From: Gemmatimonadales bacterium
GTDB lineage: Bacteria > Gemmatimonadota > Gemmatimonadetes > Gemmatimonadales > GWC2-71-9
Direction: 5' to 3'
Length of the DNA stretch: 64,000 bases
NCBI GenBank assembly: GCA_036004525.1
Contig: DASYRJ010000040.1
Span: 5,810 to 69,809 of the forward strand
Every line of letters begins with the position of its first letter. Position 1 is the stretch's first letter. Below are positions 24,120-55,867 of the stretch, in pieces. The position numbers and the translations under genes were made by a program. The notes beneath the pieces are model-generated. The model searched no databases. It was not told where the DNA came from and was given only the letters and a program-made list of their open reading frames with translations.

Positions 24120-24914
24120 TCAGGGCTCGACGAAGACCGGCACGGCGGGCAGTTCCAGCGCGAACGTGAATCGCGTCCCGCGCCCGGGGCGCGTGGTGAC
24201 CTCGAGCTGCGACCCCAGAGCGGTGACGAGCTTGTTGCAGATGGCGAGCCCGAGGCCCGAGCTCGAGAAGTGGTGCCGCGCCGTGGTGGGGGCCTTCCGG
24301 AACGGCTGGTACAACGTGCGCACGGTCTCGGGATCGAGGCCGGGGCCGGTGTCGCTCACCGAGAATTCGATGTACGCACCGTCCCGCTCGCGCGCGACCA
24401 CCTCGACGGAGCCCTGCTCGGTGAACTTCAGGGCGTTCGTGGTCAGGTTGAGCAGCACGCGCGACAGCGCCCGCTCGTGGCCGAACCGCCGGTCGCGCTC
24501 GGGCCCCTCGAACCGCAGCGCGAGCCGCTTTTCCTCGGCGAGCGGTGTCACGACGTCGCGCACGGCCCCGAACAGGTCGCGAATTGAGAACGACGCGGCC
24601 TCGCGCTCCGCCAGCCGATCGCCGCCGCGCGCCAGCTCGAGCACGTCGCTCGCCGCGGCGCAGAGGCACAGGGCGGCGCTGCGGATCAATCCGAGTTGCC
24701 GGCGCTGCCGGTCGTTGATGGGACCGCTGCGCTCGCGCTGGATGGTCTCGGCGAGGAAGAGGATCGACGTCAGCGGGGAGCGCAGGTCGTGCGCCATCTC
24801 TACCACGAGGTCCAAACCGCGCGGTCCCGCGAGGCAGGCGGCGAGGTCCGCCGGCTCCGTCTCCGGCCGGCTCGGCCGACTGCGCGGCAGGTGCTCCGCG
24901 GCGTTCGTCTTCAT
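24120..24914 (-). CDS. Soluble histidine kinase (HisKA + HATPase only, no sensor or TM domain)
   Basis: Has the H-box EMAHDLRSPLTSI, the N-box LLNLTTNALKF, and DTGPGL and GLGLAI G-boxes. The start overlaps the stop of the upstream regulator gene (ATGA). Confidence 0.85.
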   Translation of the reverse strand: MKTNAAEHLPRSRPSRPETEPADLAACLAGPRGLDLVVEMAHDLRSPLTSILFLAETIQRERSGPINDRQRRQLGLIRSAALCLCAAASDVLELARGGDRLAEREAASFSIRDLFGAVRDVVTPLAEEKRLALRFEGPERDRRFGHERALSRVLLNLTTNALKFTEQGSVEVVARERDGAYIEFSVSDTGPGLDPETVRTLYQPFRKAPTTARHHFSSSGLGLAICNKLVTALGSQLEVTTRPGRGTRFTFALELPAVPVFVEP

Positions 24915-26473
24915 ACCGCTTCGTGCTCCGCCTCGACCGTCTCACGCTCCACCACCCAGGCGGCATTCGGGCTGCGCTGCAGGCCGTGCCGCTCCATCAG
25001 GCGGTACAACGTCGTCCGGTCGACGCCGGCGATCCGCGCGGCCTTGGACATGTTCCCGGCCGCCCGGGAGAGCAGCCAGGTCAGGTACTGCAGCTCGAAC
25101 TGCGCGATCACGCGCTCCCGCGCGACGTGATAGCTCTCCTCGAGCATCGTGGAGATCAGCGATGCCGGGTTGGCGCCGACGCCGGGCCGCGCCTCCACGG
25201 TGAGCGCCAGATCTTCGGGGCGGATCACCACACCCGGCTCCGCGAGGACGGCCACGTGCTCGATCACATTCTGCAGCTCGCGCACGTTCCCGCGCCACGG
25301 ATGCGTGCACAGCGAGCGGATCGCCCCCTCGGACAGCTTCGGGAAGGCCTCGCCCTTCTTCCGGTGGCGCACCCAGTACGTCGAGAGGAAGTACTCCGCC
25401 AGGAGCGGAATGTCCTCGGGTCGCTCGCGCAGCGGCGGTACGTGGATCGGCACCACGCGCAGCCGGTAGTACAGATCCTCGCGCAAGGTGCCCGCCTGCA
25501 CCGCAGCCTCGGCGTCCCCGTTGGTCGCGGCGACGAATCGGACGTTCACGACGGCGTCGGTGGTCTCGCTGCCGACGCGGCGCACCACGCCGTCCTGGAT
25601 GACGCGCAACAGCTTCGCCTGGATCGGCTTGGACATCTCGATCAGCTCGTCCAGGAACAGCGTGCCGCCGTTGGCCGCCTCGAGCAGGCCCGCCTTGTCG
25701 CGGACCGCGCCCGTGAAGGCGCCCTTGCGGTGGCCGAACATTTCCGACTCGAGCAGCGCCTCGGGGAGGGCGGCGCAGTTGACCGCCACGAACGGCCGGC
25801 TGGACCGACGGCTGTGCTGGTGGATGAATTGGGCGATCAGCTCCTTGCCCGAGCCGCTCTCGCCCGTGATGAACACCGAGGCGTCCGTCGGGGCAACCTT
25901 GCGCGCCAGCTCGATCGCCGCGCGAAACGCCGCCGAGGTGCCGAGCAGCGTGACCTTGTCGCCGGGCGCGGGCTGCCGCTCGAGCACCGCTTCCTGCTCG
26001 CGGGTCTCCTGGCCGACCAGCACCGTGTGCACGGCCCGTCCGACGGCGATCTGCAGATGCTGCGCCGTGAACGGCTTCGGAAGGTAGTCCCACGCGCCCT
26101 GCCGCAGCGCTTCGATGCTCGACTCGACGCTGGGGTTCCCCGTCATCACGATCACGATCGTGTCGGGGTTCGCCGCCAGCGCGGCCCGCAGCAGCGCGAG
26201 CCCGTCGACTTGCGACATGTAGAGGTCGGCGAGCACGATGTCGAAGGGCCGGCGCTTCAGCAGCTCGAGCGCTTCCTGGCCGCGCCCGCTCACCGTTACG
26301 TCGTACCCTTCCCCGCCGAGCACACTAGCGCAGCTCTCGCGCAACGTGCGCTCATCGTCGACGACCAGAATGCGGATCCGGGACTTGGCCTCCGGTCCGA
26401 TCTGCAGCAGTGCACTCACGCCGGCCGGGTCGGCTGTGCTGCCAGCGCTGTTCGATGCGATCGAAGTGGTCAT
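24911..26473 (-). CDS. NtrC-family sigma-54-dependent response regulator (REC + AAA+ + HTH)
   Basis: Lies in ORF 24911..26518, with an ATG at 26473. It has a canonical receiver (VVDDE...VLADLYM...MTG...LPKPF), Walker A GESGSGKE, GAFTGA and a C-terminal Fis-type HTH. Confidence 0.9.
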   Translation of the reverse strand: MTTSIASNSAGSTADPAGVSALLQIGPEAKSRIRILVVDDERTLRESCASVLGGEGYDVTVSGRGQEALELLKRRPFDIVLADLYMSQVDGLALLRAALAANPDTIVIVMTGNPSVESSIEALRQGAWDYLPKPFTAQHLQIAVGRAVHTVLVGQETREQEAVLERQPAPGDKVTLLGTSAAFRAAIELARKVAPTDASVFITGESGSGKELIAQFIHQHSRRSSRPFVAVNCAALPEALLESEMFGHRKGAFTGAVRDKAGLLEAANGGTLFLDELIEMSKPIQAKLLRVIQDGVVRRVGSETTDAVVNVRFVAATNGDAEAAVQAGTLREDLYYRLRVVPIHVPPLRERPEDIPLLAEYFLSTYWVRHRKKGEAFPKLSEGAIRSLCTHPWRGNVRELQNVIEHVAVLAEPGVVIRPEDLALTVEARPGVGANPASLISTMLEESYHVARERVIAQFELQYLTWLLSRAAGNMSKAARIAGVDRTTLYRLMERHGLQRSPNAAWVVERETVEAEHEAV

Positions 26474-26731
26474 GTTGGGTTCACGCTCCGGCCCACTGCT
26501 ACGCAGGGATCGGGCCACAGTGTCGCACTATCGCAGCAGTGACCGAAACATGCGGAAAAACCGGTGGTTGCGCCTCGCAAACCCCCTGTTACGCCCCGCG
26601 TTTCTTGCACCAACCTGCATCCGCCGGAATCCCTTGGTGCACCGATTTGCGACATCGCGGAGGCGCAACAGGAGGCACGGTAGCGGCCGCCGAACTGCCA
26701 CACGGTATCGGACTTGCTACAAGCAGGCGCG

Positions 26732-29158
26732 ATGATTCCTAAACACCTTCCGGCGATTCGCGCCCAATCCGCCGCTGCCGCGGCCGTGCGGCGCGCGACC
26801 CCGCCGCATTCCCCGAGTCTGGCCGACGAAGACACCGGCCCCGATTGGCGGCGCATCGCGAGCGCGTTGTGGCGCTTCAAATGGGTAGTGATCCTCATGG
26901 CGGCCGCGGGCCTCGGGGCGGCCGTGGCCGCGACGCGCGTCCTGCGCCCCCTATACGTGGCCCAGGCGAACATCGTCATTGACGTTCCGGATCGCCGCGG
27001 CGGCACGGGCACCGATGCCCGAGGCCCGATCCGCTCGGGCGCGCTGCTCGACGCGGATGCCTGGGTCGAGCTGCTCCGGTCGTACGTCGTGCTCGACCAG
27101 GTCGTGCGTGATCTGCGCCTGTACTTGGAGGTCAAGGGGCCGGGGGACCGAGCGGGGTTCGCGAGCTTCGGCGTGAACGACGACTTCCGCCCGGGTGACT
27201 ACCGTCTGAGTGTGAGCCCCTCCGGTCGGGAGTACACTCTGTCCTCCGCCGGTGGTATTACGCTCGAGCGGGGGAGTGTCGGCGACTCGGTGGGCGGCCG
27301 GTTCGGCTTCCGCTGGGTTCTGGCGGCGGGCACCTTCGCGGCCGGCCGCACGGTCGAGTTCTCCCTGGTGCCGCCGCGCGACGCTGCGCTGCGACTCGGC
27401 GAGCAGCTCGATGTCCGAAAAGACTTGAACGGCAGCTTCCTGGCCGTGGAACTCCGGGGGACGAATCCGGTTCTGATCTCCAACATTCTGAACGCGGTGA
27501 CCAAGCGCTATGTGGACGTCGCGGCCCAGCTCAAGCGCGAAAAACTCACCGAGCTGACGAAGATCCTCGACGATCAGCTCACGACCGCGCAGCGGAACCT
27601 CGATGATGCCGAGACCGCACTCCAGGCATTCCGCACCCGCACCATCACCCTGCCGACCGATCAACCGGTGGGGGGTGGCGGCCCCGATGCGCGTGATCCG
27701 GTCCGCACGAGCTTCTTCGATATGCAGGTCGAGCGCGACCAGCTGCGCCGCGACCGCGACGCGATCGGGCAGCTGCTCGCTCAACCGGGAGACTCCGGCC
27801 TGCCCGTCGACGCGTTGTCGGCCATCGGCTCGGTCGCACACGCCCCGGAGCTGTCGAATGCCCTGAAAGAGCTGAGCGACAAGCAGGCGCAGCTGCGCGC
27901 GCTCCGGTACCACTACACGGATACCTATCCCCCGTTGCAGCGGCTCGTCGCCGAGATCGCCGTGCTCGAGCAGCGCACCATCCCGACGTTGGCGCAGGCC
28001 CTGATGGCGCAGCTCGCGACGCGGGAGACGGAGCTGGGGAGACAGGTGGGCGCCACCTCCCGCGATCTCCAGCAGATTCCCAGCCGTTCGATCGAGGAGG
28101 CTCGGCTACGCCGCAACGCCGACCTGACGGAGCAGTTGTACAGGACCGTAAAGGAGCGTTTCGACCAGGCCCGGCTCTCCGCCGAGGCGACGGTTCCGGA
28201 CGTCCAGATCCTCGACCCCGCGATCGTTCCGCAGCGCCCGGTCAAGAACACGGCGCCGCGGCTGCTGTTCATGGGGCTCCTCGCCGGCCTCGGGCTGGGG
28301 GTGGTGGGCGCGATCGTGCTGGACCGTGTCGACCCCCGGGTGCGCTACCCGGAGCAGGTGTCGCGCGACCTCGGCCTGCCGATCCTCGGCGCCGTACCGC
28401 ACCTCCACACCAAGGACGACCCGGCGGAGGTGGTCGAAGCGCTGCGCGGCGTGTGCCTCAACCTGGTGCACGCGCACGGCACGGCGGGACCGGGGCCGCT
28501 GCTCTTCACCCTCACGAGCCCCGGCCCGGGCGACGGGAAATCGTTCCTCGCGGCCAACCTGGCCCTCACCTTCGCCGATGGCGGCCACCGCACACTGCTG
28601 CTGGACGGCGATATCCGCCGTGGCGTGCTGCACCGCCGGTTCAACGGCAACCGGCAGCCGGGCCTGGTCGATTTCCTGCGTGGGGACGTGGGGCGCGACC
28701 AGATCGTCCAGCCGACGCCGTATCCCGGGCTCTCACTCATCGGCTGCGGGACGCGGACTCAGCGCGCGCCCGAGGTACTCGGTTCTCCGGCAATGGGCGA
28801 GCTGGTCGCGGGCCTGCGGCCGGACTACGACGTGATCGTGGTCGATAGCCCCCCCCTCGCTGCGGGGGTCGATCCGTTCATCCTGGGAACGGTGACGGGC
28901 GCGTTGGTCCTGGTGCTGCGCACCGGGCACAGCCACCGTGACGTGGCGGGCGCCAAGCTCGAGGTGCTGGAGCGCTTGCCGGTCCGGATGCTCGGCGCCG
29001 TGTTGAACGACGTCCCGCGCGGCGCCGCCTACGGGTACTACGCGTACTACTCGTACTATCTGCCCGGTTATGAGGCGGTGGACGAGAGCGACGGCCGGGG
29101 CGGCGGGGTGGAGGCGGGAGCGGGAACCGGGCGTCGGTCGGGCCCGCGCGTCGTCTAG
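26732..29158 (+). CDS. Polysaccharide co-polymerase (Wzz/GumC-like) fused to a BY-type tyrosine autokinase
   Basis: The ORF track starts at a TTG at 26714; the ATG at 26732 is preferred. It has a TM helix, a long coiled periplasmic region and a second TM. Walker A is SPGPGDGKS, A' is LLLDGDIRR and Walker B is VIVVDSPP. The tail is Tyr-rich (YGYYAYYSYYLPGY). Confidence 0.85.
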   Translation: MIPKHLPAIRAQSAAAAAVRRATPPHSPSLADEDTGPDWRRIASALWRFKWVVILMAAAGLGAAVAATRVLRPLYVAQANIVIDVPDRRGGTGTDARGPIRSGALLDADAWVELLRSYVVLDQVVRDLRLYLEVKGPGDRAGFASFGVNDDFRPGDYRLSVSPSGREYTLSSAGGITLERGSVGDSVGGRFGFRWVLAAGTFAAGRTVEFSLVPPRDAALRLGEQLDVRKDLNGSFLAVELRGTNPVLISNILNAVTKRYVDVAAQLKREKLTELTKILDDQLTTAQRNLDDAETALQAFRTRTITLPTDQPVGGGGPDARDPVRTSFFDMQVERDQLRRDRDAIGQLLAQPGDSGLPVDALSAIGSVAHAPELSNALKELSDKQAQLRALRYHYTDTYPPLQRLVAEIAVLEQRTIPTLAQALMAQLATRETELGRQVGATSRDLQQIPSRSIEEARLRRNADLTEQLYRTVKERFDQARLSAEATVPDVQILDPAIVPQRPVKNTAPRLLFMGLLAGLGLGVVGAIVLDRVDPRVRYPEQVSRDLGLPILGAVPHLHTKDDPAEVVEALRGVCLNLVHAHGTAGPGPLLFTLTSPGPGDGKSFLAANLALTFADGGHRTLLLDGDIRRGVLHRRFNGNRQPGLVDFLRGDVGRDQIVQPTPYPGLSLIGCGTRTQRAPEVLGSPAMGELVAGLRPDYDVIVVDSPPLAAGVDPFILGTVTGALVLVLRTGHSHRDVAGAKLEVLERLPVRMLGAVLNDVPRGAAYGYYAYYSYYLPGYEAVDESDGRGGGVEAGAGTGRRSGPRVV

Positions 29159-30108
29159 CCGACCGAGGGGCCGGTGCCCTCGTCGTAGCGCCGAATCCAG
29201 GACGCACCGCCCACGGGCGTGCCGCGGCGCAACGCGGCGCTCGCGCGGATCAAGAGGTCCACGGGCTGAATCGGCGCATGCCCTACGTTGGTCACCGCCT
29301 CATAGCCGACCCGCACGCCGCGCAGCGGCAATGGCGGCCGGGCAGCTCGTACGCCGTCCTGGACCGCGTGGAGCAGCCGTTCGGCGAGCTTCATGGCGCC
29401 GGCCGCGTCGGTCGCCGGCGCGATCACGGCGAACTCGGTGGGGCCGAGGCGGCCGACGGCATCGGAGAGCCGCGGCGCCGCTTTGAGGACCTGCACGCAC
29501 CGCAGGATCGTCCCCGCGGCGGCATCCGCGGCCGCGGCCGCGCCGGGCTCGAGATCGAGGGCGAACGCGACGCACGCGAGCGCGCCGTGCTGGCGGAACG
29601 CCTGCGAGCCCAGCTCGCGCGCCCGGCGCGCCATGCCCTGGCGGTTGTACAGCCCCGTCGCGGGGTCGAGCAGGCCCTCCGCCCGCGCCCGGTCGGCGTC
29701 CAGCTTGGCCCGCATGTAGGCCTGGACTTTGAGCACCAGCTCCTCCGCATCCATCGAACGGCCGACGCACTCCCACGCGCCCGCTCGCATCGCGGCGACA
29801 CGCTGCTCCAGCGTCGGCGCGTGCGGCGTCGTCACGAGGATGGGCGTACTCTCCCACACGCGAGGATCTTGTCGCAGCAGACGACACAGCTCGAGCCCGC
29901 TCATGTCCGTGAGCACGGCGTCGATGAGAATCGCGTCGGGCTGCGTCCCGCGGGCGCGCAGGAGCGCGTGTCGCGCGTCGGAGGCTTGGAGCACGGCGAA
30001 GCCGTTGGGCGCGAGGATCTCGTCGAGCCAACGGGCGGTCCCAGTGGGATCGCCGACCACGAGGATGAGTGGTAGGCTGGCTGGTCGCGGTCCTTCGGGC
30101 TCGGTCAT
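29155..30108 (-). CDS. Response-regulator receiver + degenerate GGDEF domain protein
   Basis: The REC-like N-terminus reads LILVVGD...ILIDAVLTDMSG...ILVTT. The GGDEF-fold start reads DPATGLYNRQG. The signature motif is replaced by RLGPTEF. Alternative GTG start at 30117. Confidence 0.7.
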   Translation of the reverse strand: MTEPEGPRPASLPLILVVGDPTGTARWLDEILAPNGFAVLQASDARHALLRARGTQPDAILIDAVLTDMSGLELCRLLRQDPRVWESTPILVTTPHAPTLEQRVAAMRAGAWECVGRSMDAEELVLKVQAYMRAKLDADRARAEGLLDPATGLYNRQGMARRARELGSQAFRQHGALACVAFALDLEPGAAAAADAAAGTILRCVQVLKAAPRLSDAVGRLGPTEFAVIAPATDAAGAMKLAERLLHAVQDGVRAARPPLPLRGVRVGYEAVTNVGHAPIQPVDLLIRASAALRRGTPVGGASWIRRYDEGTGPSVG

Positions 30109-30526
30109 GAATTGCACGGTGTGGACGCCGGCCGTGGGCGCAAGCCGTGTGCCGCCGGTGCGGCTTGCGTCGGTCGGGCGCTGCGCGGGCGCCGTGCGGT
30201 CCGGCGCGGGCTGCCGCGCCGGCGCAACGCGCCTCCAGCGGGCGGGCCGCCTGCCACGCGCCCGCCCGCGCGGTCTAACCTCTTGTGAAGTAGCACTCTA
30301 GGCGTGGTGTCAGGCGCCGTCGCGACAGTCTGGGCCCCAATCTTGAAGTACGGTCCGGCGTGCGCATCACACGCTCTACGCAACACACCACGGCCGACGT
30401 CAAGGCGCCGCCGGCGCCCCACGCCGCGGACGAGGTGATGCTCGAGACCTTGGCGGAGCTCGCCCAGTTCGGTCTCGACGCCGAAGCTCGCACGCTGCTC
30501 GAGCGCAGCGACGAGGGCCGCTGACC

Positions 30527-35537: not shown

Positions 35538-35570
35538 GGCCCGGGCTCCCCGCCCGGGCCTGTTGGTTTT
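35538..35570 (+). terminator. Rho-independent terminator after the S8 peptidase gene
   Basis: Stem GGCCCGGGC / GCCCGGGCC with loop TCCCC, followed by TGTTGGTTTT. Confidence 0.65.
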
Positions 35571-35680
35571 GGTGCATGCGCGCGGCGACTGCGGCCCGCG
35601 AGTGAGGCGCCTGAGCGCTGCGGCATCGCTGCTACGATTTCTAGTGCCTTCAGGCGCAAGCAGATGCGCGCCGGAGGAAG

Positions 35681-35695
35681 TGGCACTGCGTTTGC
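35681..35695 (+). promoter_or_regulatory. Consensus sigma-54 (-24/-12) promoter
   Basis: Reads TGGCAC-tgcgt-TTGC, an exact match to TGGCAC-N5-TTGC. It is intergenic and lies about 53 nt upstream of the ATG at 35748. Confidence 0.65.
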
Positions 35696-35747
35696 CTTCG
35701 ACGTGGGCAGGCCCTCGGGCCACACCATTACTCACGGAGGCGACGTC

Positions 35748-36392
35748 ATGTTCAAACTGAGAACCCTCGCGGTGCTGGCGGCACCGGTGGGGATCGCGCT
35801 GGTCGCGTGGAGCTGCGATCGCGGGACCCCGGCCAGCCCGCGTATCGACCGCCCGAATTTTTGGGCTGGGGGAGAGCAGTGTCCCGGTGGCAAATTCACC
35901 GGCGGCGGTCGCATCGATCCTCCAGACCACCAGGATGCGGAAGATCAAGAGGACGGCCCGAGCGGCCCGCAGATGAGCGGGAAGGTCACATTCGGGTTCA
36001 ACGTCCACCTCGGCTCCGATGGCAACGGCGGCTGCGTCGTGGAGAAGGGTGAGATCCAGGTCGTCCATCATCAGCCGCTGTTCCCGTTCCAAGTCACCTG
36101 GCACGTGTCCATCCACAGCGGCGCAAACGACATCGACGGCACCGCCGTGCCGGCGCGCACGTACTTCAGCTCGCGCGGAGGCCTGTGCGTCGTCGTGGGA
36201 CCGACGGCAGCGCGCACGCACGCCGTCACCCTCCAGCAAGAGGGGACGGAGCAGACGCGCATGACCGCCTGCGACAACGGCGAGCCGGGCTCGAGCCCGG
36301 GGTTCGGACCCGATGCGTTCCGGTGGGAGAGTGCGAACTTCGGCGATACGCAGCTGCAGTTCTTGACGGGCGGCAACATCCAAGCGCACTGA
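35748..36392 (+). CDS. Hypothetical lipoprotein (214 aa)
   Basis: Lies in ORF 35106..36392, with an ATG at 35748 after GGAGG. It has the lipobox VAWSC. I recognise no domain. A GKFTGGGRI...KVTFGFNV pattern is present. Confidence 0.5.
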   Translation: MFKLRTLAVLAAPVGIALVAWSCDRGTPASPRIDRPNFWAGGEQCPGGKFTGGGRIDPPDHQDAEDQEDGPSGPQMSGKVTFGFNVHLGSDGNGGCVVEKGEIQVVHHQPLFPFQVTWHVSIHSGANDIDGTAVPARTYFSSRGGLCVVVGPTAARTHAVTLQQEGTEQTRMTACDNGEPGSSPGFGPDAFRWESANFGDTQLQFLTGGNIQAH

Positions 36393-36412: not shown

Positions 36413-37123
36413 ATGAAACGCATACACACGCAGTGGGCGCGCCGGGTGGCCGCTCTCGGTCTGGTTGTCGGACTGACCGCGGGGCTTCAGGCAGCGGGCG
36501 TCGCCCAATCGGTGAGTGGCCGGGCGTACGGGGCGTACGCCAGCACGCCACTCGGCTCCACGGCCCAGGCGCCGCTGGCCGTGCTGCCCTACGGCTCGGG
36601 AACGGACGGCAATGTGGCGCACGCCGAATCCGACGGATTGAGCGCCGGGAGCGCGCTGTCGGCGGACTTCCTGAACAGCATCACGTCGGGGGCCACCGGG
36701 AGGTGGGGCGATGCCTCGGCCGGGGGCGCGCAGAGCGTCGCCTCGGTGGGGACCGTCAACATCCTGAGCGGGCTCATCACGGCGACGGGAGTGATCGCCA
36801 ACGTGGCCAGCACGCGCACGGCGAGCGGGGCGGTGAGTGACGCCAACGGCTCGAGCTTCTCGAACCTGGTGGTGGCCGGCACGCCGGTGACCTCGGGCGA
36901 GGGCACCGTCGCTCCCAACACGCGCATGAATCTGCCCAACGTCGGCTACGTCGTGTTGAACGAGCAGACGCTCACGGGCGACGGCGTGACGTCGAGCGGC
37001 ATCACCGTGAACATGATTCACGTGGTCATGCAGCAACCCATCCTGGGGCTGTTGGGCCAGGTGATCGGCTACCAGACGGTCGGCAACATCATCGTGGGGT
37101 CGGCCTCGAGCGGCGTGAACTAG
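36413..37123 (+). CDS. Hypothetical secreted Gly/Ser/Thr/Ala-rich protein (236 aa)
   Basis: Has a signal peptide (MKRIHTQWARRVAALGLVVGLTAGLQAAGVAQS). It may resemble 'choice-of-anchor'-type secreted proteins, but this is unverified. There is no C-terminal sorting signal. Confidence 0.5.
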   Translation: MKRIHTQWARRVAALGLVVGLTAGLQAAGVAQSVSGRAYGAYASTPLGSTAQAPLAVLPYGSGTDGNVAHAESDGLSAGSALSADFLNSITSGATGRWGDASAGGAQSVASVGTVNILSGLITATGVIANVASTRTASGAVSDANGSSFSNLVVAGTPVTSGEGTVAPNTRMNLPNVGYVVLNEQTLTGDGVTSSGITVNMIHVVMQQPILGLLGQVIGYQTVGNIIVGSASSGVN

Positions 37124-37216: not shown

Positions 37217-38092
37217 TCAGCCCTCGAAGGGTCGGATCCAGCCGAGGCGGGAATCGACGTCGGCGTCGAGCGAGGCCCGGCGCGCCCGCACCAGCAGGTC
37301 CCGCGCGCTGACGGGGGCGTACGCCAGATTGCCGACCGCATCGTACCCGGCGCGCAGCCGGAACGAGGGGACGGACCCGGCGGCTTCCTGCGAGCGCCGC
37401 CGCATCTCGCCGGCCAGGCGTTGCGCCAGCCGGATCGCCCCTTGCGCGCCGGTCGCCGGTGCGACCACCGCGAATTCAGCGGCCGCGACCCGGCCGGACA
37501 CGTCGGAATGCCGCACGCCGCGCCGAATCGTCTGGGCGCAGAACGCGGTGACCTCGGGGCGCGCCGCATCGTCTACGAGCTCGGGGGCGAGCACCACGCA
37601 CGCCAGCGCGGCGCGCGCCCGCACGGCGAGGGCGCCGAGCTGGTCGAGGTGCCGAGCCACGCCTTGCAGATTGTAGAGCCCGGTCTCGGGGTCCACGAGG
37701 CTGCTCGACTCCGTTCGCTCGGCCAAGGTCTTGCGCTGCGCGAAGGTCTCAAGCTTGAGGAGCAGCTCCTCGATGTCGAGGGGCTGGTCCAGAATGTCCC
37801 ACGCGCCGGCGCGGAGCGCGGCGAGCCGCGCGTCCCGAGGCGCCGGGCCGCCCGTGACGAGGATCGCCGTATGCGGGCCGACGTGCGGCTCCTGACGCAG
37901 TCGGCTGCACAGTTGGACGCTCTCGTGCAGCGCGGCGTCGACGAGAATCGCATCGGGGTGGGCGTGTCGTACCGCCTCGACCGCCTCGTCCCCCGACGTC
38001 GCCGGCAGCACCGTGGTGCCGCTGGCCTCGAGTTTGCCGGCGACGTGGTGCACGAGCGGCTCGTGCGGGCTGGCGACCAGGACGAGTGCCAT
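37217..38092 (-). CDS. Receiver-like + degenerate GGDEF protein (paralogue of 29155..30108)
   Basis: Lies in ORF 37217..38158. The likely start is the ATG at 38092 (MALVLVASPHE). It has DPETGLYNLQG, and the GGDEF position reads RVAAAEF. It shares C-terminal WIR..EG with the paralogue. Confidence 0.65.
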   Translation of the reverse strand: MALVLVASPHEPLVHHVAGKLEASGTTVLPATSGDEAVEAVRHAHPDAILVDAALHESVQLCSRLRQEPHVGPHTAILVTGGPAPRDARLAALRAGAWDILDQPLDIEELLLKLETFAQRKTLAERTESSSLVDPETGLYNLQGVARHLDQLGALAVRARAALACVVLAPELVDDAARPEVTAFCAQTIRRGVRHSDVSGRVAAAEFAVVAPATGAQGAIRLAQRLAGEMRRRSQEAAGSVPSFRLRAGYDAVGNLAYAPVSARDLLVRARRASLDADVDSRLGWIRPFEG

Positions 38093-38198
38093 TGTGGTAG
38101 CGCATGATGCCGCAAGATCCGGTCCGAACAGTTCCGTGCGGGGCAGGGATTCCCTCAAGCGGGTATGGGAATTGCCCCAAGACCCGGGGAGGTGGTGA

Positions 38199-38852
38199 AT
38201 GCCGCTCCGCGTGATCCTGGCCGACGATCAGGAGATGGTGCGCCAAGGCATCAAGCTCCTGCTCGAGCGCGAAATGGGAGACCTGCGGATCGTCGGCGAG
38301 GCGTCCGATGGCCGCGAAGCGGTGCGGCTGGCGCAAGAGCTCCGCCCCGACGTCGCTGTGCTCGATCTGGCGATGCCGGTGTTGAACGGCCTCGACGCCG
38401 CGCGCGAGATCCGCCGCCACGTCCCGCTCACGAAAACCATCCTGTTGACCGTGCACGCCGAGGACCGGCGCGTGATGGACGCGCTGCGCGCGGGCATCAA
38501 CGGCTACGTGCTGAAGACCCAGCCCCCCAGTGAATTGGCCCAGGCGATCCAGGAGGTCGCCCGCGGCGCGGTCTACCTGAGCCCGGCAGTGTCGCGGGCC
38601 GTGGTCGACGCGTATCTCGCGGCGGAGCAGTCGCCCGCCGGGCGCCTGCCGGGCGAGCGGCTTACCCCCCGCGAGCGGCAGGTGCTGCAGCTCGTGGCGG
38701 AGGGGAAGACGACCAAGGAGATTGCGACGATCCTCGGGGTGAGCGTGAAGACGAGCGAATCGCATCGCACGCGGGTGATGCACAAGCTGGGGATTCACAC
38801 GGCCGCGGGGCTGGTGCGTTACGCGATTCGCGAAGGGCTCGTCAATCCGTGA
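38199..38852 (+). CDS. NarL/FixJ-family response regulator (REC + LuxR HTH)
   Basis: Has ILADDQEMV, VAVLDLAMPVLNG, LTVH and a LuxR-type HTH (LTPRERQVLQLVAEGKTTKEIA). Confidence 0.9.
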   Translation: MPLRVILADDQEMVRQGIKLLLEREMGDLRIVGEASDGREAVRLAQELRPDVAVLDLAMPVLNGLDAAREIRRHVPLTKTILLTVHAEDRRVMDALRAGINGYVLKTQPPSELAQAIQEVARGAVYLSPAVSRAVVDAYLAAEQSPAGRLPGERLTPRERQVLQLVAEGKTTKEIATILGVSVKTSESHRTRVMHKLGIHTAAGLVRYAIREGLVNP

Positions 38853-38920
38853 CGCCTCATTTTGGTGCATCGCGAACAGCGGAAACGCCCCACTGTGTGG
38901 CGGAACCAGGAGGAGGCTCG

Positions 38921-38963
38921 TTTACGTAAAGCACAACACGTTGTGTGACAATACGTTGCGCAA
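38921..38963. promoter_or_regulatory. Cluster of palindromes upstream of the rsbR promoter (candidate activator/operator sites)
   Basis: TTTACGTAAA (38921..38930) and TTGCGCAA (38956..38963) are perfect palindromes. CACAAC-ac-GTTGTG (38932..38945) is an inverted repeat. Confidence 0.35.
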
Positions 38964-38982
38964 GCGCAGCAGTACCATGTCG

Positions 38983-38998
38983 TGGCACTAGCCTTGCT
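38983..38998 (+). promoter_or_regulatory. Consensus sigma-54 (-24/-12) promoter of the stressosome operon
   Basis: Reads TGGCAC-tagcc-TTGCT, an exact match to TGGCAC-N5-TTGCW. It is intergenic and lies about 56 nt upstream of the ATG at 39054. Confidence 0.7.
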
Positions 38999-39053
38999 GT
39001 TGCGGCGACACAACATTCGTCTCCGTTCCCTCACCCGGCGAGGTATCGTGTCC

Positions 39054-39959
39054 ATGGGTAAGAAAGACGTGCAGCCGCCACCGCCGCAGGATCCCCAGGC
39101 CACGCCCGAATCGACGCAAGCGCTGCTGCGGGAGCTCGTGGCGCACTTGCGGCAAAACCGCACCCAGCTGCGCGAGGAGTGGGCCCGGCGCATCACGAAG
39201 GCGCAATTGCTGACGGCGATGACCGAGGAGGAGATCTTCGCCGAGGCGACATCGGTGTACGACAACTACGTCGAGGCGCTGGAGACGGGGACGTTCGAGG
39301 CGCTGCAGGCATATGCGCGCAACCTGTCGGAGCGCATCATTCCGCGCGGCGTCGAGACGCACGAAGTCGTCGGCATCGTGCTGCTGCTGCGTGACGTGCT
39401 CGCCCGCTCACTGTTCGCCAAGTACCACGAAGACTTCACCAAGCTCAACCGCATTCTCGACGCCTACGAACCCGCCGCCAACCGGATCGCGAATACGGTG
39501 GCGGTGGGTTTCGTGCAGGAGCGCGAGCGCATCATCCGGCAGCAGCAGGAGGCGATCCGCGAGCTGTCGACCCCGGTGCTCCAGGTGCGCGAACGCTTGC
39601 TCATCCTTCCCATCATCGGCGTGATCGATCCGCAGCGCGCCCGCCAGCTCACCGAGCAGCTGCTGAGGGCGATCCGCACCAACCGCGCGAAGGTGGTCGT
39701 GATCGACATCACCGGCGTGGCGGCGATGGACTCGAACGTGGCGAACCACCTGGTGCAGACGGTCGAGGCGTCCCGCCTGCTCGGAGCGACGGTCATCGTC
39801 ACCGGGTTGTCCCCCGAGATCGCGCAGACGCTCGTCACCATCGGCGTGGACCTGAGCGAGATGGCGACGGTGGGCGACCTGCAGGGCGGCATCGAAGAAG
39901 CTGAACGGCTGCTGGGGTACAAGGTGATTCAACTGGCGGAGGCTACACAGCAAGCCTAA
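39054..39959 (+). CDS. rsbR: RsbR-like stressosome sensor (N-terminal non-haem globin-like domain + C-terminal STAS)
   Basis: Lies in ORF 38982..39959, with an ATG at 39054. The STAS block LLILPIIGVID...VVVIDITGVAAMDSNVANHL has the conserved DITGV threonine. Confidence 0.8.
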   Translation: MGKKDVQPPPPQDPQATPESTQALLRELVAHLRQNRTQLREEWARRITKAQLLTAMTEEEIFAEATSVYDNYVEALETGTFEALQAYARNLSERIIPRGVETHEVVGIVLLLRDVLARSLFAKYHEDFTKLNRILDAYEPAANRIANTVAVGFVQERERIIRQQQEAIRELSTPVLQVRERLLILPIIGVIDPQRARQLTEQLLRAIRTNRAKVVVIDITGVAAMDSNVANHLVQTVEASRLLGATVIVTGLSPEIAQTLVTIGVDLSEMATVGDLQGGIEEAERLLGYKVIQLAEATQQA

Positions 39960-39970
39960 GGGGGCGCGTC

Positions 39971-40342
39971 GTGGAAGTTCCCATTCTGAAGCAGGGCCAC
40001 TACCTGATCGCGTCGATCCAGTCGGCCCTGTCCGACGCCGACCTCTCCCAGCTCCGCGAGAAGCTGATCGAGCGCGTCGGGAAGTTCCGGGCCCGCGGCG
40101 TGATCGTGGACGTCACGGCGCTCGACGTGATGGACTCGTTCGCGGTCCGCACGCTGCGCGACATCGCGCACATGGCGCGGTTGCGCGGCTCCGAGACGGT
40201 GATCGTCGGCATCCAGCCGGAGGTCGCCTTTGCGATGGTGCAGCTCGGGCTCACGCTGAAAGGCGTCGCCACCGCTCTCGATCTGGAAGAAGGCCTCGCC
40301 TTCCTCGACCTCCAGGCAAAGGGGCGCATCGACCGTGGCTGA
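39971..40342 (+). CDS. rsbS: RsbS-like STAS-domain stressosome scaffold
   Basis: 123 aa with a GTG start. VPILKQGHYLIASIQ...VIVDVTALDVMDSF has the conserved Ser in DSF. Confidence 0.8.
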   Translation: MEVPILKQGHYLIASIQSALSDADLSQLREKLIERVGKFRARGVIVDVTALDVMDSFAVRTLRDIAHMARLRGSETVIVGIQPEVAFAMVQLGLTLKGVATALDLEEGLAFLDLQAKGRIDRG

Positions 40343-40745
40343 AGAGCTGCGCTGTCCGATCGCCGCAGACGTCGACATCGTGCAGGCCCGCCAGATGGGG
40401 CGCGAGCTGGCCGCCGGCCTCGGCTTCTCGGCCGGCGACCAGACGGTCATCGCGGCCGCCATCTCGGAGATCGCGCGCAACATCCTCATGTATGCCAAGC
40501 GCGGTGAGATGCGGCTGCGTACCGTGAACGACGGGTCCCGGCACGGCCTGGTCGTGGTCGCCGAGGACGACGGTCCCGGCATCCGCGACGTGCCGCGCGC
40601 GCTCCAGGACGGCTACTCCACCTCCGGAGGACTCGGGCTCGGCCTGCCCGGCGCCCGCCGGCTGATGGATGAGTTCGAGGTCGTCTCGGAGCTGGGCCAC
40701 GGCACGCGCGTCACGATGAAAAAGTGGACGCGGATCCATGGGTAG
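40335..40745 (+). CDS. rsbT: RsbT-like serine/threonine kinase (GHKL ATPase)
   Basis: 136 aa with N-box EIARNILMYA, G1 DDGPGI and G2 GLGLGLPG. It overlaps rsbS by 8 nt. Confidence 0.8.
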   Translation: MAEELRCPIAADVDIVQARQMGRELAAGLGFSAGDQTVIAAAISEIARNILMYAKRGEMRLRTVNDGSRHGLVVVAEDDGPGIRDVPRALQDGYSTSGGLGLGLPGARRLMDEFEVVSELGHGTRVTMKKWTRIHG

Positions 40746-41361
40746 GCCCCTGCGTGATACGACGTCCGTCGTTCACTGGGGGGTCGCCACCCTGGCGCTC
40801 GCGGGCCAGAGGGAATCGGGTGACCTCCACCTCGTGGTGCCGGTGGAGGACGGCGTGCTGGTGGCGGTCGTGGACGGCCTCGGCCACGGCGAAGACGCCG
40901 CCGCCGCCGCCAAACTCGCCGTCCACACCCTGGAGCGGTTCGCGGACGAGCCGCCCTTGTCGCTGGTGCAGCGCTGCCACGCGGCGCTCCGGGGGACCCG
41001 CGGGGTCGTGATGAGCCTGGCCCGTTTCGACGCGCACCGCGGCGCGATGACCTGGCTCGGCGTGGGGAACGTGGAAGGGTACCTGCACCACGCGCAGTGG
41101 GCCGACCGCTCGGGGCGCGCCAGCCTGGTCACGCGCGGCGGCATCGTCGGGTCGGACCTCCCCGCCGTGCAGGCAGCCGTGGTCCCTGTCGAGCCCGGAG
41201 ACACGCTGGTCCTCGCCACCGATGGCATCCGGAGCGGGTTCGCCGACGACATCACGATCGGCGACGAGCCCCAGCGGCTCGCCGACGAAGCGCTCTCCCG
41301 CTACGGCAAGGGCACGGATGATGCACTCGTGCTCGTCGCGAGGTACCTCGGACGCAAGTGA
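40738..41361 (+). CDS. rsbX: RsbX-like PP2C-type phosphatase
   Basis: 207 aa with [12 protein letters not shown] and LATDGI metal-binding motifs. It overlaps rsbT by 8 nt. Confidence 0.7.
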
Positions 41362-42791
41362 CGCGAAGCCTGACCGATTCCGCCCAGCAGCCGTCCGGCG
41401 GACCGACGCCTCCGGCGGCCCGCGGGGGAGCGATGCGCGCCCTGCGCGTGCTCGCGGTCGGCGGCGAGGGCGGCGCGGGGGCGCTGCAGAGCCTGCGGCA
41501 GTGGGCGGCCGAGCTGCGGGTCGAGCTGGAATGCGCGGCCGACCTGCCGCGCGCCACGCGGCTGCTGGCCGGCGGCCGGTGGGACGTCGTGATCGCGGTC
41601 CTCGGCGAGCGGGCCGACGAGGAGCTGACGTGGTGGATGGACACGCTCCGGGCGGCGCCCGCTCCCCCGCCTCCCCGGCTCGTCGCCATCGCCGACCGGC
41701 CTTCCATGGGTCTGGTGCTGCGCGCCGAGAAGCTCGGCGTGCTGGATCTGCTGACGATCCCGCTGCGCCGCAGCGACGTGGCCCACGCGCTCGACAGCGT
41801 GCGCTCCGCCGTCACCGAGCTGCCGGTCCCTCTGCCCTCGGTGGAGTTGAACGCGGTGGGGCAGTACGCCCTGGTCGGGCAGAGCCCGGCGATGCTGGAC
41901 GTCTACAAACTGATGGCGCGCGTCGCCAACAGCGCCGCGACGGTCCTCATTCAGGGGGAGTCGGGCACCGGCAAGGAAGTGGTCGCCCGGGCGATTCACC
42001 TGCACGGGCCGGCGGCCGCGGGGCCGTTCGTGGCGGTCAACTGCGCCGCGATCCCCGAGAACCTGCTCGAGAGCGAGCTGTTCGGCCACGAGAAGGGCGC
42101 GTTCACCGGCGCGGTGGCCCGGAAGATCGGACGCTTCGAGCAGGCCGGCGGGGGCACGCTGTTTCTCGACGAAGTGGCCGACATGAGCCTGGCGCTCCAG
42201 GCGAAGATTCTGCGCGCGGTGCAGGAGCGCGAGATCGAACGCGTCGGCGGCACCGAAACGCTTCCCGTGACCGTGCGCCTCATCGCGGCGACCAATCGCA
42301 ACCTGCGGGACGCGATCGCGGACGGGAAATTCCGCGAGGATCTCTACTACCGCCTGGCGGTGGTGGTCATCGACCTGCCCCGCCTCGCGGACCGTGGTGA
42401 CGACCTCCTCCTCTTGATCTCGCACTTCGCGCAGCAGTTCGGGGAGCGCTCGGGGAAGCGCATCACCGCGATCTCCGATCGGGCGCTCGAGCTGCTGCGC
42501 AGCCGGCAGTGGGTGGGCAACGTGCGGGAGCTGCGCAACGTGATGGAGCGCGCCGTCATCCTGGCCAACGACGCCGCGCTGCGCACCGAGCATCTGCCCG
42601 AAGAGATCCGCGGCGAGGAAGCGAGCCTGCCCGAGCGCGGACAGGGGACCCTGGCCACGCTCGCCGAGCTCGAGGCCCGGCACATCGCGCGCGTGCTGGC
42701 GCACACCGGCGGCCAGATCGGCGCGGCGGCCGAGATCCTGGGCATCCATCGCAACACGCTGACGCGCAAGATGAAGGAGTACGGCCTGTGA
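41358..42791 (+). CDS. Sigma-54-dependent transcriptional activator with a degenerate (pseudo-)receiver N-terminal domain
   Basis: The GTG at 41358 overlaps the rsbX stop (GTGA). It has Walker [30 protein letters not shown] and a Fis HTH ([21 protein letters not shown]). The receiver-like region reads VLAVGGEGG...VVIAVLGE and shows no clear acidic pocket. Confidence 0.9.
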
Positions 42792-44068
42792 AGGTCGAGC
42801 AGGCGCTGCGCCTGTTGCCCGATCTCGAGGCCCTGATGCCGCTGCGCGGCCTGCTGCTCGCGAGCGCCCGTCCGGACCAGCGCCTGCAGTGGGGCAGCGG
42901 CGGGCCCTACCTGACGGTCGGCAAGCACGCCGTCGAGCCCGGCGAGCTGACGCGTGGGATGGCGCCCGTGCTGAGCCTCATCACCGAGCACATCGGCGCG
43001 CTGTATCGGGCGTACGTGGAGGCCCTCGAAGCGCAGGAGCGCGGCGAGCCCGCCGACGCCGTGGCGGCGTTGCTGGGCGCGGGGCGGCTGGAAGCGCGCG
43101 TGGGGCGGCTCGAGCAAGCCAGCGCCTGGTATGAAGTCGCCCTCGCGCTGGCGGAGGGCCTGCAGGACCGGCGGCCGGAGATCGAGACGCTCCTGGCGCT
43201 CGGGGGCGTGTGCCTCGCGCACGGCTGGTATGCCGAGGGCGCCCGGCACTACCAGCGCGCACTCGTGCTGGCGGAGGCGGAATTCGATCAGGGGGGCGCG
43301 ATCGACGCCTGCGTCGGGCTGGGGTGCGTCGCCTTCGAGCGGGCCGAATGGGCGGGAGCGCAGGCGTGGTACGGCCGTGCCCTGCGCCTCGTCGAGACCG
43401 GCGGCGACCGGCTCCGCCTGGGGCGCATCGAGCACCAGCTGGGACTGCTCGCGCGCCGCCAGGGCGACCTCGCCGCGGCCGGCGAGCACCTGCGCCGCGC
43501 CCGGGAGTGCTTCGAGGCCCTCGCCGCGGGCCGGGAGATGGCCCTGGTGCTGGACGCGCAGGGCGAGCTCGACGCCGCGCTGGGGCGTGCCGAGTCGGCG
43601 GCGGCGGCGTACCGCGAGGCGCTGGCGTGGCTGCGCCGCGAGGGGCGGGATGTGGAGCTGGACGTCACCATTCGCCTCCATCTTGCCGAGCTGCTGCTCG
43701 AGGCCGGTCGGGCGCTCGAGGCGGAGGAAGAGATGCGCCGCGCCGAGCAGCTCGCGATCAGCTCCAACCTTGCCCACCGCCTGGTGCAGATCTACGCCCG
43801 GCTCGGCACGCTGCGCGGCGGCCAAGGCGACGAGACGGGGTTCGTCTTTTTCGAGCAGGCGATCGAGCTGTGCCGCGCCCTGGGGTGCCCGCCGGCGGAA
43901 GAAGCGCGCGTGTATCACGCGTACGGCCTGTTCCGCAGCCGGTTCGGGGGGGCGGGGCGGGATGAGGCCCGCGCCTACCTCGAACGGGCGAGGGAGATCT
44001 TCCAGTCGCTGGGCGTGGAGGCCGAGGTCGAGCGCGTGCGGGCGGAGCTGCAGGAGCTGACGGCGTAA
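42788..44068 (+). CDS. TPR-repeat protein
   Basis: Lies in ORF 42509..44068. The GTG at 42788 overlaps the activator stop. It has repeated A/L/E/R-rich 34-residue helical pairs (W/YxxALxLAE...). Confidence 0.6.
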
Positions 44069-44237
44069 CGCACGTCAGGGCGCCGGCCGGGCGTTCCCCG
44101 CATCCGCCACGAATCGCCACGTGCCATCCGCCGCGCGCTGACGTGCTTCCCGGCGGCTCTTGGGCACGGCGGTGGATTCGCCCAGATTTCCGAAAAGGGG
44201 CGACCCCATGAAGACGCGAAGTAGCGCGGCACGCTGA

Positions 44238-45428
44238 GTGCGCCCGCTGCTCTACGGGGCGGCGGCCGTCCGGTCGTTCACGACCGGCCTGGTGGGTGTG
44301 CTGCTGGGACTCTACCTGGCCGAGTTGGGATTCGCTCCGGCGGCCGTGGGGCTGGTCGTCGGCGCGGGACTCGCCGGGAACGCTGCCGGCACCGCGCTGG
44401 TTGCGGCGCGTGGCGAGCGGTGGGGCCGGCGCCGGACGCTGCTCGCGAGCGGCGCACTCTCCGCATTGGGGTTAGCGGCCACCGCGTTGATCACGACATC
44501 GCTCGCGGCGCTGGCGCTGGCGGCCCTCGTCGGCATGGTGAACGGGATGGGCCGCGACCGCGGACCGGCGCAGACGCTCGAGCAGAGCCTACTGGCGGAT
44601 GCCGCCGGCGACAGCGAGCACACCGCCGTGTTCGTGCGCTACACCTTTCTCCAGGATGTGGTCGGGGCGTGCGGCTCGCTCGCCGCCGCGCTTCCCGCGC
44701 TGGTGGCGCGGCTCGGTACCGTTCCTCCCGTTCCCGCCTATCGGGCAACCCTGGGGGGCGCCGCGGTGGTGTCACTCGCCGCGATCTGGCTGTACGCGCG
44801 CCTCCCGCGCGACGCGCCTCCTTCCCCCCGCGGCACGCCGCGGCCGGCGCTCAGCCCGACATCACGACGTCGCATCGGGGGGCTGACCGCTCTGTTCGCG
44901 CTCGACAGCCTGGGCGGTGGGCTGCTGGCAGGATCGATCCTCTCGTACTGGTTCTTCCGTCGATTCGGGCTGGGCCCCGAAGCGCTCGGGCCGATCTTCT
45001 TCGCGGCGCGGGCGCTCAACGCCCTGTCGTACTTCGCGGCCGAATGGCTCGCCCGTCGCATCGGGCTGCTCCGGACGATGGTGTTCACCCATCTGCCGTC
45101 GAGCCTGTTGCTCGTCGCGCTCCCGTTCGTGCCGGGTGCCGCGGCGGCCGTCGCGCTCTTTCTCCTGCGGGAGGCGCTGGTGCAGATGGACGTTCCCACG
45201 CGACAGGCGTACGTCGCGCAGGTGACGGCGCCGGGCGAGCGCACGGCGGCGCTGGGCATCACGGGCCTGGTGCGGAACGTGGGGTGGGCGCTCGGGCCGC
45301 CGCTCGCCGGCGTGGGGATGGCGGTAGGGGGCCTTGCCGCGCCGCTCCTCGCGGGCGCGGGCCTCAAGGCCGTCTACGACGTGGCGCTTTACGCCTCGTA
45401 TCACCGAACCAGTAGGAACACATCATAG
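44238..45428 (+). CDS. MFS transporter
   Basis: 396 aa with about 12 predicted hydrophobic helices and a GERWGRRRTLL loop motif between TM2 and TM3. Confidence 0.7.
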   Translation: MRPLLYGAAAVRSFTTGLVGVLLGLYLAELGFAPAAVGLVVGAGLAGNAAGTALVAARGERWGRRRTLLASGALSALGLAATALITTSLAALALAALVGMVNGMGRDRGPAQTLEQSLLADAAGDSEHTAVFVRYTFLQDVVGACGSLAAALPALVARLGTVPPVPAYRATLGGAAVVSLAAIWLYARLPRDAPPSPRGTPRPALSPTSRRRIGGLTALFALDSLGGGLLAGSILSYWFFRRFGLGPEALGPIFFAARALNALSYFAAEWLARRIGLLRTMVFTHLPSSLLLVALPFVPGAAAAVALFLLREALVQMDVPTRQAYVAQVTAPGERTAALGITGLVRNVGWALGPPLAGVGMAVGGLAAPLLAGAGLKAVYDVALYASYHRTSRNTS

Positions 45429-52480: not shown

Positions 52481-52555
52481 GGTGGCTGTAGCTCAATCGG
52501 TTAGAGCGCCGGACTGTGGCTCCGGAGGTTGCGGGTTCGATTCCCGTCAGCCACC
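52481..52555 (+). tRNA. tRNA-His: tRNA-His (anticodon GTG) with genome-encoded G-1
   Basis: Hand-folded cloverleaf: G-1, acceptor GTGGCTG/CAGCCAC, anticodon stem CCGGA/TCCGG, loop CTGTGGC, T-arm GCGGG-TTCGATT-CCCGT, discriminator C. No encoded CCA. Confidence 0.85.
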
Positions 52556-55794: not shown

Positions 55795-55867
55795 AGGTCC
55801 GTAGCTCAATTGGTAGAGCACCGGTCTCCAAAACCGGGGGTTGCAGGTTCGATTCCTGCCGGGCCTG
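55795..55867 (+). tRNA. tRNA-Trp: tRNA-Trp (anticodon CCA)
   Basis: Hand-folded: acceptor AGGTCCG/CGGGCCT, anticodon stem CCGGT/ACCGG, loop CTCCAAA, T-arm GCAGG-TTCGATT-CCTGC, discriminator G. Confidence 0.85.

Follow-up and report, generated by a model that had tools for sequence, protein, structure and literature searches.

A 64,000-nucleotide stretch of a Gemmatimonadales metagenome-assembled genome (assembly GCA_036004525.1, contig DASYRJ010000040.1, positions 5,810 to 69,809; hereafter, the window) carries six open reading frames at 39054-44068 on the + strand. They encode homologues of the stressosome proteins RsbR, RsbS and RsbT, an RsbX-type PP2C phosphatase, a sigma-54 enhancer-binding protein (EBP), and a tetratricopeptide repeat (TPR) protein. 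The operon is probably a complete stressosome module whose output partner is the EBP-TPR pair encoded after rsbX, rather than a sigma-B partner-switching cascade. This reading is supported by the homology of the components, a gene order that is conserved while the flanks vary, a reduced variant of the operon, a pseudo-receiver domain in the EBP, the promoter, an upstream sequence (TTTGGTGCA) shared with a second promoter, and a precedent in Moorella. A more specific proposal has somewhat less than an even chance of being correct: the partner switch would end on sigma-54 and not on a sigma-70-family factor, with released RsbT binding, or phosphorylating on Ser/Thr, either the pseudo-receiver EBP or a TPR anti-activator, and thereby switching on a local envelope/exopolysaccharide regulon together with its own operon.

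In characterised stressosomes, complexes of RsbR and RsbS sequester RsbT when cells are unstressed. On receipt of a signal, RsbT phosphorylates Ser/Thr sites of RsbS and RsbR and leaves the complex, and RsbX later performs the reset. The RsbT of Bacillus subtilis activates RsbU by binding to it, not by phosphorylation. Stressosomes are widespread, but to our knowledge the only outputs so far assigned to them are sigma-B partner switching, one diguanylate cyclase and, tentatively, two-component proteins. A conserved link to a sigma-54 activator would join two well-studied paradigms. The initial annotation of this DNA was aware of no characterised sigma-54 EBP output of a stressosome. A full-text literature search returned no paper joining the stressosome or RsbT to sigma-54, to EBPs or to Gemmatimonadetes.

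The coordinates and domain assignments (the latter by Pfam) of the six genes are collected in Table 1. Judged by their sequence features, the first four proteins are true homologues of stressosome components, as the initial annotation had proposed; the alignments with Listeria RsbR and RsbS, the identity with B. subtilis RsbT and the Pfam SpoIIE match all agree with that assignment. Residues 28-292 of RsbR align with residues 5-274 of full-length Listeria RsbR from the stressosome cryo-EM entries (E 9e-35), so that the sensor domain is included. The phospho-site motifs ELSTPV and DITGVAAMDS also align with those of Listeria RsbR, the second phospho-acceptor position being a Ser, and there is a weak, sub-threshold Pfam match to RsbRD_N. 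RsbS matches Listeria RsbS from end to end (E 2e-27), and its phospho-serine motif DVMDSF falls on DFIDSF.

Over 133 residues, RsbT shares 50% identity with a manually entered sequence of B. subtilis RsbT, and its kinase motifs, namely the N-box, DxGxG and GLGLGLPG, are intact. Because a PDB sequence search returned SpoIIAB as the closest entry and no RsbT sequence nearer than this, its identity rests on the manually entered B. subtilis sequence together with the name given by JGI. The RsbX-type protein has a single domain of 207 amino acids, with the DGLGHG, ATDG and DD metal-binding motifs visible in the translation. As a single-domain PP2C encoded after rsbT, this predicted phosphatase fits the role of RsbX.

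Within the operon, an 11-nt gap between the first two genes is followed by overlaps of 8, 8, 4 and 4 nt, and the open reading frame coordinates and Pfam domains agree with the six-gene unit that had been described for this locus. The six proteins correspond to the consecutive NCBI records HEV8304172.1 to HEV8304177.1, which derive from a contig of 76 kb, and where they are named STAS domain-containing protein (the first two), anti-sigma regulatory factor, SpoIIE family phosphatase, sigma-54 dependent transcriptional regulator, and hypothetical protein. JGI names for members of the respective clusters are RsbR, RsbS, RsbT, PrpC, NtrC family response regulator, and TPR protein. None of the six receives a family-level name from NCBIfam, every match falling under its curated cut-off. 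Individual genes are thus annotated in public databases, and no interpretation of their combination appears to have been offered in the sources searched.

The module shares with the stressosome operons of B. subtilis and Listeria the same four proteins in the same order, with aligned phospho-Thr/Ser motifs. The difference lies downstream, where an EBP and a TPR protein follow rsbX and where RsbU, RsbV, RsbW and sigma-B are missing from both operon and window. No linked genes for these four proteins were found in the window or in the flanks of related loci, and the window contains no further STAS, RsbT/RsbW-like or PP2C paralogue. The absence of a sigma-B-like gene, also asserted in the initial annotation, is borne out for the window by a tblastn search that found no sigma-70-family gene, a weak test that used manually entered SigB and RpoE queries.

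Conservation of the operon was assessed by scanning one genome per GTDB species with an alignment of the EBP N-terminal domain, a query that picks up relatives of that domain only. The scan returned 63 loci, all from Gemmatimonadales or Gemmatimonadaceae metagenome-assembled genomes. When the six window proteins were used as tblastn queries, all six genes were found in the same order and on the same strand in 45 of the 63 loci, while 16 others were incomplete solely through contig ends. Just two loci are incomplete for another reason. The initial annotation had named loss of co-conservation between the EBP and rsbRSTX in relatives as grounds for abandoning the idea; what is found instead is an association kept in nearly every locus that can be read through. 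Five contigs read in detail have the identical six-gene set within differing flanks.

Identity to the window proteins differs between components. It is 88-98% for RsbR (51 species loci), 81-94% for RsbS, 64-87% for RsbT, 46-76% for RsbX, 60-77% for the EBP, and 48-76% for the TPR protein. RsbR and RsbS therefore diverge far less between species than do the other four proteins (46-87%), and such very high conservation would fit a constrained assembly of the two into the large pseudo-icosahedral complex that sequesters RsbT. The cluster of RsbR sequences at 90% identity has 1531 members, and metagenomes hold many relatives of the EBP at 72-96% identity.

The two exceptional loci (L060, 6700-10711, and L064, 6300-10329) are closely related and come from Gemmatimonadaceae. 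They contain RsbT, the EBP and the TPR protein only, with no RsbR, RsbS or RsbX within 8 kb. Upstream of the three genes come about 640 nt in which no gene is obvious and then an epimerase gene, and no clear sigma-54 promoter was found upstream of rsbT in either locus. Because this reduced variant retains exactly these three genes, RsbT appears to be tied to the EBP and the TPR protein, and not only to RsbR and RsbS.

The EBP had originally been described as an NtrC-type AAA+ activator with a Fis helix-turn-helix (HTH). The activator half of that description stands: the protein carries the Walker A motif GESGTGKE, GAFTGA, a Walker B motif and a C-terminal HTH, which together are the features expected of a bacterial enhancer-binding protein. 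The NtrC-like half does not, in that the receiver is degenerate and cannot be phosphorylated on Asp. No NCBIfam equivalog reaches its cut-off, the PEP-CTERM regulator PrsR (TIGR02915) scoring 342.9 bits against a required 502.6. The first 170 residues have no Pfam match, Response_reg included, and a profile of 25 relatives matches the response-regulator receiver weakly (E 0.006). The AlphaFold2 model of this region nevertheless adopts a (beta-alpha)5 fold, with a pLDDT of 83 overall and above 90 in the core. Foldseek pairs the model with the CheY, XynC and NtrC1 receivers, at target-normalised TM-scores of up to 0.8, and also with the known pseudo-receivers AmiR and TadZ.

The residues on which phosphotransfer depends are changed in every one of 107 relatives, which have V/A/L/I in place of Asp57, A in place of Thr87, L/V/I in place of Lys109, and G/A in place of Asp12/13. 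Since the phospho-acceptor Asp, the Thr and the Lys are absent throughout, a histidine kinase cannot drive the EBP. The sequences thus identify the domain as a receiver fold predicted to be unable to take a phosphoryl group on Asp, for which two-component input is excluded. With the usual kinase input excluded in this way, the EBP needs some other partner. Residues of surface type are invariant in the domain, namely W75, W92, W93 and a PSMG motif; the last, at the beta4-alpha4 loop, is nearly invariant (105-107 of the 107 relatives).

A comparable arrangement is known from FleQ of Pseudomonas, an EBP with a degenerate receiver that is controlled by a partner, FleN, and is linked to exopolysaccharide genes. 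The two proteins have in common a receiver-like N-terminal domain that is not phosphorylatable on Asp, a presumed control by partners, and a link to exopolysaccharide. They differ in that the EBP described here has no match to Pfam FleQ, and its candidate partners are RsbT and the TPR protein rather than a MinD-like ATPase.

The TPR protein belongs to a small family, with 591 matches at E <=1e-5, and it is seen only together with this EBP. Its AlphaFold2 model (pLDDT 85) is an unbroken TPR superhelix from residue 51 to the C-terminus (51-426), the nearest folds being generic superhelices of the LGN/Pins type, which are peptide-binding TPRs. Residues 1-50 (42788-42940) are modelled at a pLDDT below 50, yet they are highly conserved, and V3, P11, W35, S37, G39, P40, Y41, T43 and G45 are invariant. 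A conserved N-terminus modelled at low confidence is typical of a segment that probably folds on a partner.

Binding proteins that control EBPs are known from other systems. In the HrpS-HrpV-HrpG and PspF-PspA systems, a dedicated protein binds the EBP and keeps it inactive until a third protein releases it. The same logic would fit the EBP, the TPR protein and RsbT as a functional analogy only; there is no sequence relationship, and the EBPs of those systems are without an N-terminal regulatory domain.

These features suggest how the module might operate. Free RsbT would act on the EBP-TPR pair, either through protein contact or by Ser/Thr phosphorylation. In the preferred version, RsbT would dock on the pseudo-receiver, which would otherwise keep the AAA+ ring off, and the TPR protein would serve as a co-regulator or an anti-activator. 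This direct route is favoured by an EBP gene that follows immediately on rsbX, by the presence of a regulatory domain without its usual input, and by the invariant surface-type residues of that domain. In an alternative that is about equally likely, RsbT would act through the TPR protein, a route favoured by the strict co-occurrence of that protein, by its conserved and probably partner-binding N-terminus, and by the analogy with HrpV/HrpG and PspA. No firm choice between the two versions is made here. By either route, the active EBP hexamer would drive sigma-54 RNA polymerase at promoters with upstream sites of the TTGGTGCA type. Its targets would include the operon's own promoter and that of a neighbouring pair of genes for secreted proteins, within an exopolysaccharide and cyclic di-GMP (c-di-GMP) gene neighbourhood.

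If RsbT acted as a kinase on the output pair, candidate substrates would be S116 of the EBP, in the PSMG loop, or S37 and T43 of the TPR protein. RsbX would then reset them, and the pseudo-receiver, once phosphorylated on Ser, would imitate a receiver. Such a scheme would make use of the intact N-box, DxGxG and GLGLGLPG motifs of RsbT. It would also place the phosphosites either in a motif kept in 105-107 of 107 relatives, in the loop region that moves on receiver activation, or at invariant residues of the conserved low-confidence segment. The scheme is nonetheless rather improbable. B. subtilis RsbT is known to activate RsbU by binding, and conserved Ser or Thr residues can be structural.

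Transcription of the operon is predicted to start at a sigma-54 promoter. The element TGGCAC-N5-TTGCT, reported in the initial annotation, is the window's only exact match to TGGCAC-N5-TTGCW, where 0.02 would be expected from shuffled sequences. With a looser pattern, two consensus sigma-54 promoters occur in the 64 kb, both on the + strand and 3.3 kb apart. Upstream of rsbR in the related loci, a GG-N10-GC match was found in 49 of 53 testable regions, mostly identical letter for letter, spacer included, and it lies 57-92 nt from the ATG in 48 regions and 137 nt from it in one. Conservation on this scale therefore provides good evidence of a promoter that is likely to be functional. The promoter has the highest information content of the upstream region and is invariant in a five-locus alignment, in which the gap is otherwise poorly conserved save for TGGCACTAGCCTTGC(T/C)GTTGCG....CAACATT and two blocks further upstream. 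No sigma-70-like promoter was found in 38700-44400. Use of a sigma-54 promoter differs from B. subtilis and Listeria, where the promoters are of the sigma-A or sigma-B type. In two loci, L039 (5293) and L043 (5164), the nearest sigma-54 match is about 370 nt before rsbR and not about 65 nt, which points to a long leader or an additional small gene.

Two candidate activator sites precede the promoter. The sequence of the first, TTTGGTGCA, is present twice in the window, 122 and 113 nt upstream of the two consensus sigma-54 promoters, and a T-run followed by G(G/T)TGC is kept at its position in related loci. Among 47 distinct upstream regions, a positional histogram of the half-site TGKTGC, counted from the -24 element, shows maxima at -90 to -86 and -125 to -121. 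The TGTGGC of the second site falls inside the alignment-conserved block CGCCCCACTGTGTGGCG. At 38840-38869, a weak terminator-like hairpin covers the stop codon of a gene for a NarL-type regulator, and its T-run is that of TTTGGTGCA. A clear terminator hairpin ends just before GTGCA in several other loci.

The palindromes that had been highlighted between these sites and the promoter are present in the window, where they have arms of 5-6 bp: TTTACGTAAA at 38921-38930, CACAAC-AC-GTTGTG at 38932-38945, and TGCGC-AA-GCGCA at 38957-38968. A repeat finder (6-base seed, 10-base minimum) reported none in the upstream gap. In related loci the palindromic form of these three sequences is not kept, and they are poor enhancer candidates compared with the sites further upstream; a loose GTAA...TTAC dyad at about -50 and -28 is kept in roughly a quarter to a half of the loci. 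The spacer that contains them may be a DNA-bending or architectural site. An IHF-type site (CAA-N4-TTG) was considered for the central palindrome, and its conservation was not upheld by a positional count.

A further dyad overlaps the predicted transcription start. It is kept in about 30 of 47 distinct sequences, 22 of which have exact TGTTGC/GCAACA arms, while the spacer varies. Three lineages (L065, L017 and L061) have both arms changed together, to TGTGGC..GCCACA. The pattern makes the dyad a candidate operator, more likely so than an RNA hairpin, the latter reading being rejected because its 5' arm would precede the transcription start predicted from promoter geometry. Rfam has no family in the upstream gap, whose conservation is therefore not due to a known RNA element.

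The dyad raises the idea that the EBP might be repressor-like or autoregulatory at its own promoter, with the dyad as its main site, and might limit expression of the operon. Conservation of the arms despite a variable spacer, their joint change in three lineages, and a TGKTGC half-site in common with the upstream sites are consistent with this. Such a role for the EBP is very unlikely, given that all activator motifs (GAFTGA, Walker A, Walker B) are present and that the dyad could belong to any other regulator. It would moreover be compatible with output through the EBP-TPR pair and does not replace that explanation.

The second consensus promoter precedes two secreted or lipoprotein-like proteins without a Pfam match (35748-36392 and 36413-37123). 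The same gene pair, again with a sigma-54 promoter, adjoins the operon in 15-21 related loci. The wider neighbourhood encodes GlmS, a polysaccharide export protein, a UDP-GlcNAc 2-epimerase, a subtilase, two receiver-GGDEF proteins and the NarL-type regulator; in other species, too, the epimerase and a receiver-GGDEF gene are found beside the operon, as is the secreted pair. Together, the genes look like a small sigma-54 regulon for envelope and polysaccharide functions with two candidate activators. Because polysaccharide-export and c-di-GMP genes adjoin the operon, the system may bear on stress-driven envelope remodelling.

The second of these candidate activators, an EBP with an intact receiver (Table 1), has an inverted pair of sites, TGCACCAA-N20-TTGGTGCA (26605-26640), in its divergent intergenic region. 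A weak sigma-54-like promoter, CGGTATCGGACTTGCT (26703), lies beyond and is followed by a Wzz/GNVR tyrosine-kinase-like gene. In L002, L060, L064 and other loci, a second EBP is likewise encoded, within 8 kb. The operon's own EBP may plausibly activate the promoter in front of it; such positive autoregulation is unproven because the second EBP could bind the upstream sites instead.

It is thus conceivable that the six genes are co-transcribed without being coupled. Another activator, for example the second EBP under a histidine kinase, would then control the operon, RsbT would have its partner elsewhere, and the operon's EBP and TPR protein would respond to an unrelated input. The receiver-intact EBP beside the inverted pair, the identical half-site upstream of the rsbR promoter, the recurrence of a second EBP near the operon, and the absence of an RsbU_N-like domain from the EBP and the TPR protein would all be accommodated. 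This arrangement is considered unlikely. It leaves unexplained why the six-gene order, with its overlapping stop and start codons, is kept in 45 complete loci despite changing flanks. Nor would it account for a reduced variant that retains exactly the switch kinase, or for a pseudo-receiver that excludes the usual kinase input, so that the EBP needs a protein partner.

Several points weigh against output through the EBP-TPR pair, and they are best considered together. The flow of signal from RsbT to the EBP is deduced from gene order only. Pfam detects no RsbU_N-like domain, the mark of proteobacterial RsbT targets, in the EBP or in the TPR protein, and this counts against both routes. The absence of rsbU/V/W-sigB holds for the window and the related flanks. 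The receiver-intact EBP may be the binder of the TTGGTGCA-type sites; we infer both every protein-protein step and the identity of the EBP at those sites. An operon whose sole promoter depends on its own product also needs a source of basal expression. Lastly, rpoN was not seen in the sequences examined, and all members of the system are uncultured.

The closest precedent comes from Moorella thermoacetica, where, in the MtR-MtS-MtT-MtX system, the RsbT homologue acts directly on the diguanylate cyclase MtG encoded after the RsbX homologue (Quin et al. 2012, cited in PMC4976288). As that work is described there, the two systems are alike in that a stressosome module is directly followed by an output protein other than sigma-B. 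They differ in that the output proposed here is an AAA+ activator and a TPR protein, and not a GGDEF enzyme. In proteobacterial stressosome output proteins, an RsbU_N-like N-terminus marks the targets of RsbT (PMC9237108). The system of Vibrio vulnificus, with its downstream two-component-type proteins D1 and D2, is likewise Gram-negative, lacks sigma-B, and has co-transcribed signalling proteins after rsbX (PMC9237108). It differs in the RsbU_N-like N-terminus of proteobacterial downstream proteins, none being detected here, and in that the RsbR described here best matches the non-haem RsbR of Listeria rather than the haem globin-coupled type.

Stressosome outputs are already recognised as modular, and the present case appears well supported by genomic data, with its molecular steps proposed from them. 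If correct, it would add a fourth type of stressosome output and a new class of input to EBPs. Control of the EBP would be exerted via a receiver fold that is dead for phosphotransfer, with a serine kinase and a TPR partner as its presumed drivers. A fold that evolved for His-Asp phosphotransfer would thereby have been re-purposed for control by a GHKL serine kinase. A sigma-54 promoter reporter would, in that case, offer a simple and reconstitutable read-out of stressosome activation. At least 63 species-level genomes of the Gemmatimonadales, an order that is common but poorly understood in soil, carry the system.

Table 1. Genes and predicted regulatory features of the operon and its surroundings (positions in the window).
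Feature	Position	Strand	Description
rsbR	39054..39959	+	N-terminal sensor domain and C-terminal STAS; Pfam STAS 1.3e-15
rsbS	39971..40342	+	Single STAS scaffold protein (Pfam)
rsbT	40335..40745	+	GHKL serine kinase, switch protein; Pfam HATPase_c_2, HATPase_c
rsbX-type PP2C phosphatase	40738..41361	+	Pfam SpoIIE 4e-14, PP2C_2
EBP	41358..42791	+	Pfam Sigma54_activat (PF00158) 241 bits, AAA_lid_14, HTH_8
EBP architecture			Pseudo-receiver at about residues 28-153, AAA+ domain with GAFTGA, Fis-type HTH
TPR protein	42788..44068	+	Pfam TPR_12, TPR_2, weak MalT-like TPR match
Candidate upstream activator site 1, TTTGGTGCA	38861..38869	+	About 120 nt upstream of the -24 element
Candidate upstream activator site 2, TGTGGC	38896..38901	+	Variant of the TGKTGC half-site; about 87 nt upstream of -24
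AT-richer spacer	38921..38968	+	Contains three short palindromes
Sigma-54 promoter TGGCACTAGCCTTGCT	38983..38998	+	-24 GG, -12 GC; predicted transcription start near 39009
Conserved dyad TGTTG-N8-CAACA	38998..39015	+	Family form TGTTGC-N6-GCAACA; about -11 to +7 of the predicted start
Second sigma-54 promoter TGGCACTGCGTTTGCC	35681 (region 35568..35696)	+	TTTGGTGCA at 35568, 113 nt upstream
Second EBP	24911-26518	-	Intact receiver; 39% identical to the operon EBP; encoded 12.5 kb upstream of the operon

Some further features of the neighbourhood may be recorded. The two receiver-GGDEF proteins are encoded on the - strand, at 37217-38158 and 29155-30117, and the operon-adjacent one matches GGDEF only partially and weakly (24 bits). 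Homologues of the gene at 37217-38158 lie upstream of the operon in 25 loci. The window also contains two tRNA genes on the + strand, at 52482-52555 and 55795-55867 (Rfam tRNA, 73 bits each).

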